Positions 4,893 through 43,976 of a DNA stretch of 64,000 nt are shown in pieces. Positions within the stretch are counted from its first letter, which is position 1; every line of letters begins with the position of its first letter. This stretch comes from Escherichia phage ZCEC14, in sequence record OP168898.1; one strand, given 5' to 3'. A program made the translations under genes and the position numbers. The notes beneath the pieces are model-generated. The model had not been told where the DNA came from and searched no databases. It saw nothing but the letters and a program-made list of their open reading frames with translations.

Positions 4893-4919
4893 TTTTCTAT
4901 CAGTTAAGAGGAGAACAAC

Positions 4920-5381
4920 ATGACTATCAACACAGAAGTTTTTATCCGTCGAAATAAGCTCCGTCGTCACTTTGAGTCGGAGTTTCGTCAAATTAACAAT
5001 GAGATTCGTGAGGCATCAAAAGCAGCAGGAGTCTCATCGTTTCATCTAAAATATTCTCAGCATCTTCTTGACCGCGCAATTCAACGGGAGATTGATGAGA
5101 CATACGTTTTTGAATTATTCCATAAAATAAAAGACCATGTTTTAGAAGTTAATGAATTCCTAAGTATGCCTCCGCGTCCTGACATTGACGAGGATTTTAT
5201 TGATGGGGTTGAATATCGTCCTGGACGTTTAGAAATCACAGATGGAAATCTTTGGCTTGGATTTACAGTTTGTAAACCTAACGAGAAGTTCAAAGACCCG
5301 TCACTTCAATGTAGGATGGCAATTATCAACAGTCGTCGTTTACCAGGAAAGGCTTCTAAAGCAGTAATTAAAACTCAATGA
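4920..5381 (+). CDS. regB: RegB site-specific endoribonuclease
   Basis: 153 aa; MTINTEVFIRRNKLRRHFESEFRQINNEIREASK... matches T4 RegB. Confidence 0.9.
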   Translation: MTINTEVFIRRNKLRRHFESEFRQINNEIREASKAAGVSSFHLKYSQHLLDRAIQREIDETYVFELFHKIKDHVLEVNEFLSMPPRPDIDEDFIDGVEYRPGRLEITDGNLWLGFTVCKPNEKFKDPSLQCRMAIINSRRLPGKASKAVIKTQ

Positions 5382-7150: not shown

Positions 7151-7320
7151 ATAGTTCTGAGCTACAATATGAAGTGTCACGTGAACTTGATAATTTAATT
7201 GAACTCGCTGCTAATAAAGGTTTTGCCATTGGAATTGGTCAAAAAGATACTGATCATTTAACTATGGAAATATTTAAGCAAAAGCGAATTATTTTAAAAC
7301 TTCTGGAAATTAATATATGA
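7147..7320 (+). CDS. hypothetical small protein (not in ORF track)
   Basis: 57 aa; ATG 7147 overlaps upstream stop, own stop overlaps next ATG. Confidence 0.4.
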   Translation: MNSSELQYEVSRELDNLIELAANKGFAIGIGQKDTDHLTMEIFKQKRIILKLLEINI

Positions 7321-7502
7321 GCCTAAGCAAAGAACAAAAAGACAAACTCTTTTCTCTTATCCACGAAGTTATGGATAAAAATAGTGAATTGGAAAAAGTT
7401 TGTAATGAATGCGGTCCTTTTAGCGCAAATGAATACGAAGAACTTTCCAAAGAATTTGATAATAAAGAACAAGAACTCATTAATTATATAAATTCCTTAT
7501 GA
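7317..7502 (+). CDS. hypothetical small acidic protein
   Basis: 61 aa; paralog-like to next ORF. Confidence 0.45.
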   Translation: MSLSKEQKDKLFSLIHEVMDKNSELEKVCNECGPFSANEYEELSKEFDNKEQELINYINSL

Positions 7503-29274: not shown

Positions 29275-30477
29275 ATGAAAGTATGTATTTTTATGGCTCG
29301 AGGTCTTGAAGGTTGCGGTGTAACTAAATTTTCTCTTGAGCAACGTGATTGGTTTATTAAAAATGGTCATGAAGTAACTTTGGTTTATGCTAAAGATAAA
29401 TCATTTACTCGTAATTGCGCACATGATTATAAGTCATTTTCAATTCCGGTTTTATTGGCAAAAGAATACGATAAAACACTTAAACTGGTAAATGATTGCG
29501 ATATTTTAATTATCAATTCAGTTCCTGCTACTTCAGTAGAAGAAGACACCATTAATAACTATAAAAAAATTATTGATAACATTAAACCTTCGGTTCGTGT
29601 TGTAGTTTATCAGCATGACCATTCTTCTCTTTCTTTGCGTCGAAATTTGGGATTAGAAGAAACTGTTCGTCGAGCTGATGTTATTTTTAGCCATTCTGAT
29701 AATGGTGACTTTAATAAAGTTTTGATGAAAGAATGGTATCCGGAAACTGTTTCTCTGTTTGATGATATTGAAGAAGCACCGACCGTATATAACTTTCAGC
29801 CTCCTATGGATATTGCGAAGGTTCGATCAACCTACTGGAAAGATGTTTCTGAAATTAACATGAATATCAACCGTTGGATTGGTCGTACTACTACATGGAA
29901 AGGCTTTTATCAGATGTTTGATTTTCATGAAAAACATCTTAAACCTGCAGGACTAAGTACTATTATGGAAGGTCTGGAACGTTCTCCAGCATTCATTCCT
30001 ATTAAAGAAAAAGGAATTCCATACGAGTATTATCGTCTTCATCAAGTAGACCAAATTAAAATTGCTCCTAATTTGCCAACGCAAATTCTCGACCGTTATG
30101 TAAATAGCGAAATGCTTGAACGCATGAGTAAATCCGGATTTGGTTATCAGCTGAGTAAGTTGGACAAAAAATATCTACAGCGTTCTTTAGAATACACTCA
30201 TCTCGAGCTTGGTGCATGTGGAACAATTCCAGTATTTTGGAAATCTACTGGCGAAAATTTAAAATTCCGTGTTGATAATACTCCATTAATTTCACATGAT
30301 AGCGGTATCGTTTGGTTTGATGAAAATGACATGGAATCAACATTTGAACGTATTAAAGAACTGTCATCTGACCGAGCTCTTTATGATCGCGAACGCGAAA
30401 AAGCTTATGAATTTTTGTATCAGCATCAAGATTCAAGCTTCTGCTTTAAAGAACAGTTTGACATTATTACAAAATAA
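29275..30477 (+). CDS. agt: DNA alpha-glucosyltransferase
   Basis: 400 aa; MKVCIFMARGLEGCGVTKFSLEQRDWFIKNGHEV matches T4 alpha-gt. Confidence 0.85.
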   Translation: MKVCIFMARGLEGCGVTKFSLEQRDWFIKNGHEVTLVYAKDKSFTRNCAHDYKSFSIPVLLAKEYDKTLKLVNDCDILIINSVPATSVEEDTINNYKKIIDNIKPSVRVVVYQHDHSSLSLRRNLGLEETVRRADVIFSHSDNGDFNKVLMKEWYPETVSLFDDIEEAPTVYNFQPPMDIAKVRSTYWKDVSEINMNINRWIGRTTTWKGFYQMFDFHEKHLKPAGLSTIMEGLERSPAFIPIKEKGIPYEYYRLHQVDQIKIAPNLPTQILDRYVNSEMLERMSKSGFGYQLSKLDKKYLQRSLEYTHLELGACGTIPVFWKSTGENLKFRVDNTPLISHDSGIVWFDENDMESTFERIKELSSDRALYDREREKAYEFLYQHQDSSFCFKEQFDIITK

Positions 30478-40080: not shown

Positions 40081-40332
40081 ATGAAAAACATTCAAACTAA
40101 TTTTATTCAAAATTTAAAAGTTGTTAATGCAGAAAAAGCTAATAAATTCTTTAAAGTTAAAGAATTCGAAAATGAAGGTAATACTTATGGTATTATAGAA
40201 CAAAATGGAATGGTGACTGGATTAGAAATTTATAATGGCAAAGGAAAATTTCAGTCACAGCCAATTTCTGTTATGGGTGTAAGAAAAGGAATTAAAACTG
40301 AAGATGCTTTAAAATTATTTGTTAAGTTTTAA
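40081..40332 (+). CDS. hypothetical protein
   Basis: 83 aa from ATG 40081; track ORF extended through the promoter. Confidence 0.5.
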   Translation: MKNIQTNFIQNLKVVNAEKANKFFKVKEFENEGNTYGIIEQNGMVTGLEIYNGKGKFQSQPISVMGVRKGIKTEDALKLFVKF

Positions 40333-40732: not shown

Positions 40733-40984
40733 ATGGAAACTTTAGTAGCGGGTTCAATTTTTATGGTTTTAGTTTCAGGCGTGTTGGCTATTATTATATA
40801 CATGCTTCCGTGGTTCATCGCCTTGATGCGTGGGTCAAAATCGACAGTAGGAATCTTTTTCACGTCTTTACTGTTTAACTGGTCAATTATTGGTTGGTTT
40901 ATTACATTTATTTGGTCAATTGCTGGTGAAACTAAAAAGTCTGCGCAGCCAAATCAGGTAATTATCATCAGAGAGAAGGAATGA
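40733..40984 (+). CDS. imm: membrane immunity protein (Imm-like, superinfection exclusion)
   Basis: 83 aa; two TM helices; size and position of T4 Imm. Confidence 0.6.
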   Translation: METLVAGSIFMVLVSGVLAIIIYMLPWFIALMRGSKSTVGIFFTSLLFNWSIIGWFITFIWSIAGETKKSAQPNQVIIIREKE

Positions 40985-41130
40985 AAAGCAAAATTATAGC
41001 AGCATTGCTTTTAATCTTGATGATTATAATAAGTATATACTATAGTGTAACGGTTCCTCTTATGATTCCAACTATTATTTTAGGTTGGAGTTTATTACTG
41101 TTACAAGTTAAATATGAATGTATCAATTGA
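40981..41130 (+). CDS. hypothetical small membrane peptide (not in ORF track)
   Basis: 49 aa; two hydrophobic segments; ATGA overlap with imm. Confidence 0.35.
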   Translation: MKSKIIAALLLILMIIISIYYSVTVPLMIPTIILGWSLLLLQVKYECIN

Positions 41131-41137
41131 GGTTTAA

Positions 41138-41878
41138 ATGATTAGTGACTCTATGACAGTTGAAGAAATCCGTCTTCATTTGGGGCTTGCATTAAAAGAA
41201 AAAGATTTCGTAGTTGATAAAACTGGTGTCAAAACTATTGAAATTATTGGCGCATCATTTGTAGCAGATGAACCGTTTATTTTTGGCGCTCTTAATGATG
41301 AATACATTCAGCGTGAACTTGAATGGTATAAATCTAAAAGCTTGTTCGTTAAAGATATTCCGGGTGAAACACCGAAGATTTGGCAACAAGTAGCATCTTC
41401 TAAAGGTGAAATTAACTCGAATTATGGTTGGGCTATCTGGTCAGAAGATAACTATGCCCAGTATGATATGTGTTTAGCTGAACTTGGTCAAAATCCTGAT
41501 TCTCGGCGCGGTATCATGATTTATACTCGTCCATCTATGCAGTTTGACTACAATAAAGATGGTATGTCAGATTTCATGTGTACTAATACAGTACAGTACT
41601 TGATTCGTGATAAGAAAGTCAATGCAGTAGTAAGCATGCGCTCAAATGACGTGGTCTTCGGATTCCGTAATGATTATGCATGGCAAAAATACGTATTAGA
41701 TAAATTAGTATCTGATTTGAATGCAGGCGATTCAACTCGTCAGTATAAAGCAGGTTCTATTATATGGAATGTTGGAAGTCTTCATGTATATTCTCGTCAT
41801 TTTTACTTGGTTGATCATTGGTGGAATACTGGCGAAACTCATATTGTGAAAAAAGACTATAAAGGTGAGTGGAAATGA
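41138..41878 (+). CDS. 42: dCMP hydroxymethylase gp42
   Basis: 246 aa; thymidylate-synthase-like fold; matches T4 gp42. Confidence 0.95.
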   Translation: MISDSMTVEEIRLHLGLALKEKDFVVDKTGVKTIEIIGASFVADEPFIFGALNDEYIQRELEWYKSKSLFVKDIPGETPKIWQQVASSKGEINSNYGWAIWSEDNYAQYDMCLAELGQNPDSRRGIMIYTRPSMQFDYNKDGMSDFMCTNTVQYLIRDKKVNAVVSMRSNDVVFGFRNDYAWQKYVLDKLVSDLNAGDSTRQYKAGSIIWNVGSLHVYSRHFYLVDHWWNTGETHIVKKDYKGEWK

Positions 41879-42717
41879 TTCAATTCGTAATTCCGAGCTA
41901 TCAACGTGTAGGGGCAGTTTCTGCCCTTGATATGTTTCCGACTGATTATGAACCGCATATTGTAGTACGTGAACATGAAGAAAAAGCTTATTACGATGCC
42001 TATGGGTCTAGAGCTAAAATTATAACTATTCCTGATGATGTAAATGGAATTGCTGGAACTCGTAAAGCAATTACTGATATGTATGCAGGTCAACGAATCT
42101 GGATGATTGACGATGATACTACTATTCGTATGAGTTCAATGCGAAAAAGAGATGATCGTCGTTGCGTAGATAAAGTCAATCAATTGACTCGTGAACAGTT
42201 CTATGAATTGATTCAATATGTTGAGGATGCCATGGATTGCGGGTATTATCATGGCCATGCTCGTCTACCTATTTTTAAAATTACTTCATCTTGGGGTAAT
42301 TATCGTGAAAATTCATATGGATTCACGAATACATGGTATGACCTCGGAAAACTTACGACAGAACAAATTGGGTATGGAAAAATTGATTTATGTGAAGATA
42401 TGTATGCATTTCTCAATTTAATTAATCAAGGTTATCCGCATTTGGCCTTGTTCAAATATCTAGTTGTATCTGGAAAAGCACAAGCTCCTGGCGGATGCAG
42501 TTCAATTCGTAGTAATTCTAAACATAATAGAGCGCTTGAGCAAATCAATAGAGAGTTTCCAGATCAAGCTCGTTGGAAAACTTCTAATATTGAAAAACGA
42601 AAATCGTTGGGTGAAGAAGATGAACCACTAAAGGTTCTTCGTATGTGTGTTTCGCGTAAAGAAAAATCAGAAGCATTTCATAAGTTTAATGCTATTCATC
42701 CAATAGCAGTTGATTAA
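41875..42717 (+). CDS. putative GT-A glycosyltransferase in the beta-gt position (beta-alpha-gt-like)
   Basis: 280 aa from ATG 41875; DDD motif (WMIDDDTT); unlike T4 beta-gt. Confidence 0.5.
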   Translation: MIQFVIPSYQRVGAVSALDMFPTDYEPHIVVREHEEKAYYDAYGSRAKIITIPDDVNGIAGTRKAITDMYAGQRIWMIDDDTTIRMSSMRKRDDRRCVDKVNQLTREQFYELIQYVEDAMDCGYYHGHARLPIFKITSSWGNYRENSYGFTNTWYDLGKLTTEQIGYGKIDLCEDMYAFLNLINQGYPHLALFKYLVVSGKAQAPGGCSSIRSNSKHNRALEQINREFPDQARWKTSNIEKRKSLGEEDEPLKVLRMCVSRKEKSEAFHKFNAIHPIAVD

Positions 42718-42794
42718 TGCCTAAATTTATTGTGTTATAATTACTCTATCTTTAACCAGTGAGGAAAATATAATGATGCCTATGGAAAAAATGA

Positions 42795-43976
42795 ATGTCT
42801 ATTGCAGATTTAAAATCCCGTTTGATTAAAGCTTCCACTTCTAAAATGACTGCTGAACTGACTACATCTAAATTCTTTAATGAAAAGGATGTAATCCGTA
42901 CAAAAATCCCAATGCTTAATATCGCTATTTCTGGTGCGATTGATGGCGGTATGCAGTCTGGTTTAACTATTTTCGCAGGGCCTTCTAAACACTTTAAATC
43001 AAATATGTCTTTGACTATGGTTGCGGCGTATTTGAACAAATATCCTGACGCGGTTTGTCTATTCTATGATAGCGAATTTGGTATTACTCCTGCTTATTTG
43101 CGATCCATGGGAGTTGACCCGGAACGAGTAATTCATACACCAATTCAGTCAGTTGAACAGCTGAAAATTGATATGGTGAATCAGCTTGAAGCTATTGAGC
43201 GTGGTGAAAAAGTTATTGTATTCATCGACTCAATCGGTAATATGGCTTCTAAGAAAGAAACTGAAGATGCCTTGAATGAAAAATCTGTGGCAGATATGAC
43301 TCGTGCTAAATCGCTGAAGTCATTATTTCGTATTGTTACTCCTTATTTTAGTATTAAAAACATTCCGTGCGTTGCGGTTAACCATACAATTGAAACAATT
43401 GAAATGTTTAGTAAAACCGTGATGACAGGTGGTACAGGCGTAATGTATTCGGCTGATACTGTATTCATTATCGGTAAGCGCCAGATTAAAGATGGTTCTG
43501 ATCTTCAGGGGTATCAATTTGTTCTAAATGTAGAAAAATCTCGTACCGTTAAAGAAAAAAGTAAATTCTTTATTGATGTTAAATTTGACGGTGGTATCGA
43601 TCCTTATTCTGGATTGTTAGATATGGCTCTAGAATTAGGATTTGTAGTAAAACCTAAGAATGGTTGGTATGCTCGTGAATTTCTTGACGAAGAAACCGGC
43701 GAGATGATTCGCGAAGAAAAATCTTGGCGTGCAAAAGATACCAACTGCACTACATTCTGGGGTCCTTTATTTAAGCATCAACCATTCCGAGATGCTATTA
43801 AACGCGCTTATCAGTTAGGTGCTATTGATAGTAATGAAATTGTTGAAGCTGAAGTTGATGAATTGATTAACTCAAAGGTTGAAAAATTTAAATCTCCAGA
43901 AAGTAAAAGTAAATCAGCATCTGATTTAGAAACTGACCTCGAACAGTTAAGTGATATGGAAGAATTTAATGAATAA
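42795..43976 (+). CDS. uvsX: RecA-like recombinase UvsX
   Basis: 393 aa; Walker A GPSKHFKS; near-identical to T4 UvsX. Confidence 0.95.
   Translation: MSIADLKSRLIKASTSKMTAELTTSKFFNEKDVIRTKIPMLNIAISGAIDGGMQSGLTIFAGPSKHFKSNMSLTMVAAYLNKYPDAVCLFYDSEFGITPAYLRSMGVDPERVIHTPIQSVEQLKIDMVNQLEAIERGEKVIVFIDSIGNMASKKETEDALNEKSVADMTRAKSLKSLFRIVTPYFSIKNIPCVAVNHTIETIEMFSKTVMTGGTGVMYSADTVFIIGKRQIKDGSDLQGYQFVLNVEKSRTVKEKSKFFIDVKFDGGIDPYSGLLDMALELGFVVKPKNGWYAREFLDEETGEMIREEKSWRAKDTNCTTFWGPLFKHQPFRDAIKRAYQLGAIDSNEIVEAEVDELINSKVEKFKSPESKSKSASDLETDLEQLSDMEEFNE

Follow-up and report, generated by a model that had tools for sequence, protein, structure and literature searches.

The gene that lies between gene 42 and uvsX in Escherichia phage ZCEC14 is almost certainly a beta-glucosyl-HMC-alpha-glucosyltransferase gene of the type found in phages T2 and T6, and its product is a member of the Pfam family TAGT (PF20691). 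The gene was studied in a 64,000-nucleotide stretch of the phage sequence (record OP168898.1), referred to here as the window. The analysis itself established how closely the sequence matches known enzymes, to which family and fold the protein belongs, how well its motif is conserved, that the locus is syntenic, and that the partner enzymes are encoded. The features discussed are collected in Table 1.

The gene would decide whether the hydroxymethylcytosines of the phage carry one glucose or the disaccharide gentiobiose. This choice bears on sensitivity to defenses directed at modified DNA, among them the Brig1 glycosylase and type IV restriction of the GmrSD/BrxU type (PMC13216743, PMC13390438). 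The identity, fold, position, and product of the gene are already known, and the copy in the window is an ordinary intact allele. What the analysis offers for this window is a correct annotation, under which the DNA modification of ZCEC14 follows the T2/T6 pattern and not that of T4.

Table 1. Features of the glucosyltransferase locus and of its partner genes, in positions of the window
Feature	Position	Strand	Detail
Gene assigned as second-glucose DNA glucosyltransferase (beta-alpha-gt / ggt / TAGT family)	41875..42717	+	280 aa
Coupling signals: GGTGA (Shine-Dalgarno-like, 6 nt before the ATG) and ATGA overlap with the gene 42 stop	41864..41878	+	Sequence
R11 codon	41905..41907	+	Arg in 83/83 homologues; His in T2
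DDD motif, D79-D80-D81	42109..42117	+	Conserved in 81/83, 83/83, and 82/83 homologues
ED pair, E174-D175	42394..42399	+	D175 in 83/83, E174 in 67/83; opens helix 174-184 (model)
Variable cassette without DNA homology to T4	41861..42806	+	From alignments of the window with T4 and T2 at both edges
Gene 42, dCMP hydroxymethylase	41138..41878	+	238/245 (97%) identical to T4 gp42; PF00303
uvsX, right-hand neighbor	42795..43976	+	PF21134, PF00154; same order in T2
alpha-gt, DNA alpha-glucosyltransferase	29275..30477	+	400 aa; PF11440, E 2.4e-236, full profile

Family membership and distribution

The closest known enzymes, those of T2 and T6, share the length and the genomic setting of the protein. 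The T2 protein BBC14657.1, annotated as a beta-glucosyl-HMC-alpha-glucosyltransferase, is identical at 277 of 280 positions (99%) over equal length, and the T6 RefSeq protein YP_010067197.1 at 275 of 280 (98%). The likeness to T2 and T6 extends to the position between gene 42 and uvsX and to the presence of alpha-gt as a partner. Phages Solly, EH2, and Maryam each have a protein that is identical at 279 of 280 positions. The PHROG family 842, itself named beta-glucosyl-HMC-alpha-glucosyltransferase, is matched over residues 1-275 (E 5e-89). The initial annotation had suggested that the ORF might be the beta-alpha-glucosyltransferase of T2 and T6, and the identities with both phages, together with the PHROG and Pfam families, support that proposal. 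The families matched are PHROG 842 and PF20691, and no match to a non-glycosyltransferase family was found.

The match to PF20691 runs from residue 3 to 207 on profile positions 2-205 of 205, with 38.9 bits against a gathering cut-off of 27.5, and the homologues found likewise match this profile. The whole profile is therefore covered, and the positions of R11, the DDD triplet, the ED pair, a GG pair, and R212 are shared with it. The modest score indicates that the T-even enzymes form a divergent branch of the family. The phage setting also differs from the one for which the family was named (TET-associated glycosyltransferase). In the phage, it is gp42 that introduces the hydroxymethyl group, at the nucleotide level, and not a dioxygenase of the TET/JBP kind working on DNA, and the acceptor would be a sugar already on the base rather than 5-hmC itself.

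At a single position the window protein stands apart from those of Solly, EH2, and Maryam. This is E230D (codon 42562-42564), directly after the conserved P229. Residue 230 is D in the window protein and E in all five relatives aligned, and the change, a conservative one, is probably neutral.

In T4, the slot between gene 42 and uvsX holds beta-gt, as the initial annotation stated and as the T4 annotation agrees. The two enzymes share the slot and would also share the use of UDP-glucose, a beta linkage, and hmC-DNA as the target. The T4 enzyme, however, has 351 residues, the GT-B fold (PDB 1JG7; PMC13216743), and 5-hmC as its acceptor, whereas the window enzyme is a 280-residue GT-A protein whose acceptor would be alpha-glucosyl-hmC. 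Homology between them was rejected because BLASTP of the window protein against T4 beta-gt gave only noise (best E 2.2), in line with the lack of resemblance to its N terminus given in the initial annotation. The T4 protein matches PF09198, and the window ORF does not.

The gene is widely distributed. With nucleotide identity set at 90% or higher, 474 phage records match its DNA (90-98%), all over the full length, and most of these are Escherichia, Shigella, and Yersinia phages of the genus Tequatrovirus. Many of the matching records, six T2 records among the matches listed included, annotate a beta-glucosyl-HMC-alpha-glucosyltransferase. By tblastn against the phage collection, a TAGT homologue is present in 688 records, with 471 at 95% identity or higher, and a beta-gt homologue in 126, with 27 at that level. 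The combination of alpha-gt and beta-gt has been reported from only 6 of 753 genomes, the usual arrangement being alpha-gt or beta-gt plus a TAGT enzyme (PMC13216743). T2 and T6 themselves have only alpha-gt and the TAGT-family enzyme (PMC13216743, NAR 2026), and the TAGT position has been described as syntenic with T4 beta-gt (PMC13390438, 2026). Alpha-gt with TAGT is thus the common arrangement in Tequatrovirus, and the alpha-gt and beta-gt of T4 are the exception. The initial annotation presented the gene as an unrelated occupant of a beta-gt slot. The position and the unrelatedness stand, but the suggestion that this is unusual does not, given that TAGT is common there by both of these counts.

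Naming in public records is uneven. In many Tequatrovirus records the TAGT gene goes under the name "hypothetical protein," "b-gt," or "beta-glucosyltransferase." Confusion in the other direction occurs in record KM607002 (RB55), where a beta-gt that is 100% T4-type bears the name "beta-glucosyl-HMC-alpha-glucosyl-transferase," and the RefSeq name for gp42 is "thymidylate synthase."

Fold, conserved residues, and proposed chemistry

A library-wide phmmer search with an E cut-off of 0.001 returned 347 relatives. An alignment of 83 homologues, reaching down to about 20% identity, was used as the multiple sequence alignment for a structure model. The single-sequence AlphaFold2 model was unusable (pLDDT 39.5) and was replaced by the model based on the 83 sequences (pLDDT 95.4, pTM 0.92). 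This model is a single Rossmann-like alpha/beta/alpha domain that can be superimposed on solved GT-A enzymes, which agrees with the GT-A-like character that had been proposed for the protein. The T6 enzyme has likewise been assigned to GT-A by AlphaFold3, and it clusters as a sister group of GT2 (PMC13216743).

The resemblance to GT2 enzymes is one of structure. By sequence, no relative was found in the PDB; the best matches (E 1.6-2) were chance ones to an unrelated PNPOx-like protein. Sequence identity to the GT2-like inverting GT-A enzymes TarP (6H1J), TarS (5TZE), AvpGT (9JMA), and BcsA (4P00) is only 8-16%. Compared with Pfam at a cut-off as loose as E 10, the protein matched PF20691 alone and did not match the GT2 profile PF00535 (Glycos_transf_2), so the term "GT2-like" describes structure only. 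The acceptors differ as well. Enzymes of the TarP, TarS, AvpGT, and BcsA kind act on polysaccharide, teichoic acid, or lipid, whereas the window enzyme would act on glucosylated DNA.

In GT-A enzymes, the DxD motif is canonically placed after the fourth beta strand. The stretch WMIDDDTT, pointed out in the initial annotation as a DxD-type motif, spans residues 76-83, and its DDD triplet directly follows strand beta4 (residues 74-78) in the secondary structure of the model. The triplet is near-invariant in the 83 homologues, so it is not a chance DxD. Four residues (R11, D80, D175, and G207) are invariant in all 83 sequences, and another ten (I6, P7, R63, I66, D79, D81, G186, G206, R212, and P229) are kept in at least 90% of them. 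The roles of these residues rest on the model and on analogy. By this reasoning, a divalent metal and the diphosphate of UDP-glucose would be bound by the DDD triplet, where beta4 ends. D175 of the ED pair is the most likely candidate for the base that an inverting GT-A enzyme needs for catalysis, with E174 as the alternative general base.

The proposed pathway has three steps. First, gp42 would make hydroxymethyl-dCMP, which would then be incorporated into DNA. Second, alpha-gt would add the first glucose to 5-hmC in an alpha linkage, creating the alpha-glucosyl-HMC acceptor. Third, the TAGT enzyme would use UDP-glucose to attach a second glucose, in a beta linkage, at the 6-OH of the first, and the product would be alpha-5-gentiobiosylmethyl-cytosine. 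The gentiobiosyl product comes from published work. In T2 and T6, the enzyme is described as placing a glucosyl group onto already alpha-glucosylated hmC to give 5-gentiobiosyl-methylcytosine (PMC13216743), and gentiobiose is Glc-beta(1->6)-Glc, joined via an alpha linkage (PMC13390438). With a UDP-alpha-glucose donor and a beta product, the transfer implies inversion, which fits a GT2-like GT-A enzyme. The reaction would then be an inverting, single-displacement transfer carried out by a single-domain GT-A protein.

The DNA of two phages with nearly identical enzymes has been analyzed by HPLC/MS. In Solly and EH2, about one third is 5-hmdC and alpha-5-gent-mdC accounts for about two thirds, with little mono-glucosyl-dC (PMC13390438). 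From the match between the proteins, ZCEC14 DNA would be expected to be heavily gentiobiosylated in the same manner, although the extent of diglucosylation is not readable from sequence, as T2 and T6 differ widely (about 5% in T2 versus about 72% in T6; quoted in PMC13390438) with enzymes that are ~98% identical.

The measurements also bear on a different account of the gene, in which the protein would be an analogue of T4 beta-gt with another fold that attaches a single beta-linked glucose directly to 5-hmC. The gene sits at the position of T4 beta-gt, many records name it "beta-glucosyltransferase" or "b-gt," and an inverting GT-A enzyme would likewise yield a beta linkage. Solitary TAGT homologues, found without alpha-gt or beta-gt, also imply that some family members use another acceptor (PMC13216743). 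However, Solly and EH2 DNA contains alpha-glucosyl and alpha-gentiobiosyl hmC and no beta-glucosyl-hmC by HPLC/MS (PMC13390438), published work has the T2/T6 enzyme act on hmC that is already alpha-glucosylated (PMC13216743), and the "b-gt" labels are inherited misnomers. Direct beta mono-glucosylation by the window enzyme is accordingly highly improbable. Beta-monoglucosylated hmC is predicted to be absent from ZCEC14 DNA.

Variant alleles in T2 and T6

The T2 enzyme differs from the window protein by three substitutions, given here as window/T2: R11/H, D230/E, and P251/S. The first of these is at a position where all 83 family members have Arg. Of 681 records, only 8 contain the exact N-terminal 30-mer of T2 that includes H11, and all of them are T2-derived.

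Two T6 sequences are available, each with a different lesion in the glucosyltransferase gene, and the window and T2 have neither. In MH550421 there is a TAG at codon 10, and the record annotates a 261-aa product starting from M20; among 473 records, no other one shares the exact 90-nt stretch (4895-4984 of the segment analyzed). In AP018814 and its RefSeq copy NC_054907 (905-1744 of the segment analyzed), a 3-nt deletion removes one Asp of the DDD triplet and leaves 279 aa. The window allele retains both R11, which is absent in T2, and the full DDD, which is absent in the T6 RefSeq sequence.

Because T2 is classically poorly diglucosylated and has His at the invariant R11, the R11H change is a candidate cause. 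Extended further, this would make the window gene a high-activity allele that yields mostly gentiobiosyl-hmC and the T2 His11 allele a hypomorph, which could explain the low diglucosylation of T2; such an extension is tentative and, on present evidence, somewhat doubtful. The variants of T2 and T6 also give a hint that selection for the second glucose may be relaxed, or even reversed, when the phages are passaged in the laboratory.

The same variants lend some color to the idea that the window gene encodes a dead or degenerating pseudo-enzyme and persists through its linkage to genes 42 and uvsX. Laboratory stocks evidently tolerate lesions in this gene, namely the TAG at codon 10 and the missing Asp in T6, and H11 in T2. 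Against this, the window gene has a full-length frame and keeps all the invariant and nearly invariant residues of the family: R11, D79-81, D175, G186, G206-207, R212, and P229. It differs by the conservative E230D alone from enzymes of phages in which gentiobiosylation has been measured. Decay of the window copy is thus extremely improbable. A sugar-nucleotide nucleotidyltransferase (RmlA/GlmU-like), which would have the same Rossmann-like fold without being a glycosyltransferase, can be set aside, as it is contradicted by the ranking of structural matches, the DxD motif, and the sequence families PHROG 842 and PF20691.

Gene boundaries, expression signals, and neighborhood

As read from the sequence, the 280-aa frame is intact from the ATG at 41875 to the TAA at 42715-42717, and the coordinates and position between gene 42 and uvsX given in the initial annotation are exact. 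A mechanical list of ORFs had placed the start at the GTG at 41869, which would give 282 aa. This start was dropped in favor of ATG 41875, which is supported by its distance from the Shine-Dalgarno-like sequence and by the ATGA coupling and is the start annotated in the records of T2, Solly, EH2, and Maryam. The ATGA overlap, which T2 shares with the window, suggests that the glucosyltransferase gene is translationally coupled to gene 42. A promoter scan of 40900-42900 found 13 candidates versus 9.5 ± 2.6 in shuffled sequences, which is within expectation.

A predicted stable RNA hairpin is located within codons 10-21 of the ORF (41903-41936, plus strand; stem core 41909-41929), just past the end of gene 42. 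Its minimum free energy is -17.4 kcal/mol (z -2.9 versus shuffles), and the scan scored it as terminator-like. The hairpin is kept in T2 and T6. The record of Yersinia phage fPS-65 annotates a "terminator" under the glucosyltransferase gene.

The order of genes in this part of the window is 43, imm.1, imm, 42, glucosyltransferase, uvsX, 40, 41, as in T2, and the region is ~96% identical at the nucleotide level to Tequatrovirus genomes. The alpha-gt gene lies elsewhere in the window and is intact, as had been reported, with a full-length match to PF11440.

Relative to T4, the glucosyltransferase gene lies in a variable cassette. DNA homology to T4 breaks off within gene 42, some six codons short of its end (~41861), and returns at codon 5 of uvsX (~42807). 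At the left edge, the C terminus of gp42 reads KGEWK in the window versus VGKYA in T4. At the right edge, uvsX has two extra codons (I3 and A4) relative to T4, as it does in T2. The cassette is ~0.95 kb in the window versus ~1.9 kb in T4, where it holds beta-gt and segA. T4 has the homing endonuclease gene segA ahead of uvsX, and the corresponding interval of the window (42718-42806) has no segA gene.

Two small ORFs lie upstream in the same region. Between gene 43 and imm.1, an 83-aa gene (40081-40332, plus strand) is identical at 82 of 83 positions (99%) to the hypothetical protein T2_046. In the T4 record these two genes are separated by a 183-nt gap in which nothing is annotated. The gap between imm and gene 42 is filled by a strongly hydrophobic 49-aa ORF (40981-41130, plus strand), MKSKIIAALLLILMIIISIYYSVTVPLMIPTIILGWSLLLLQVKYECIN, which has an ATGA overlap with the stop of imm. 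The same ORF is present in T4, identical at 49 of 49 positions (minus strand, 7228-7377 of the T4 segment analyzed), and it carries no annotation in the T4 RefSeq and T2 records. This ORF may be an unannotated small membrane protein.
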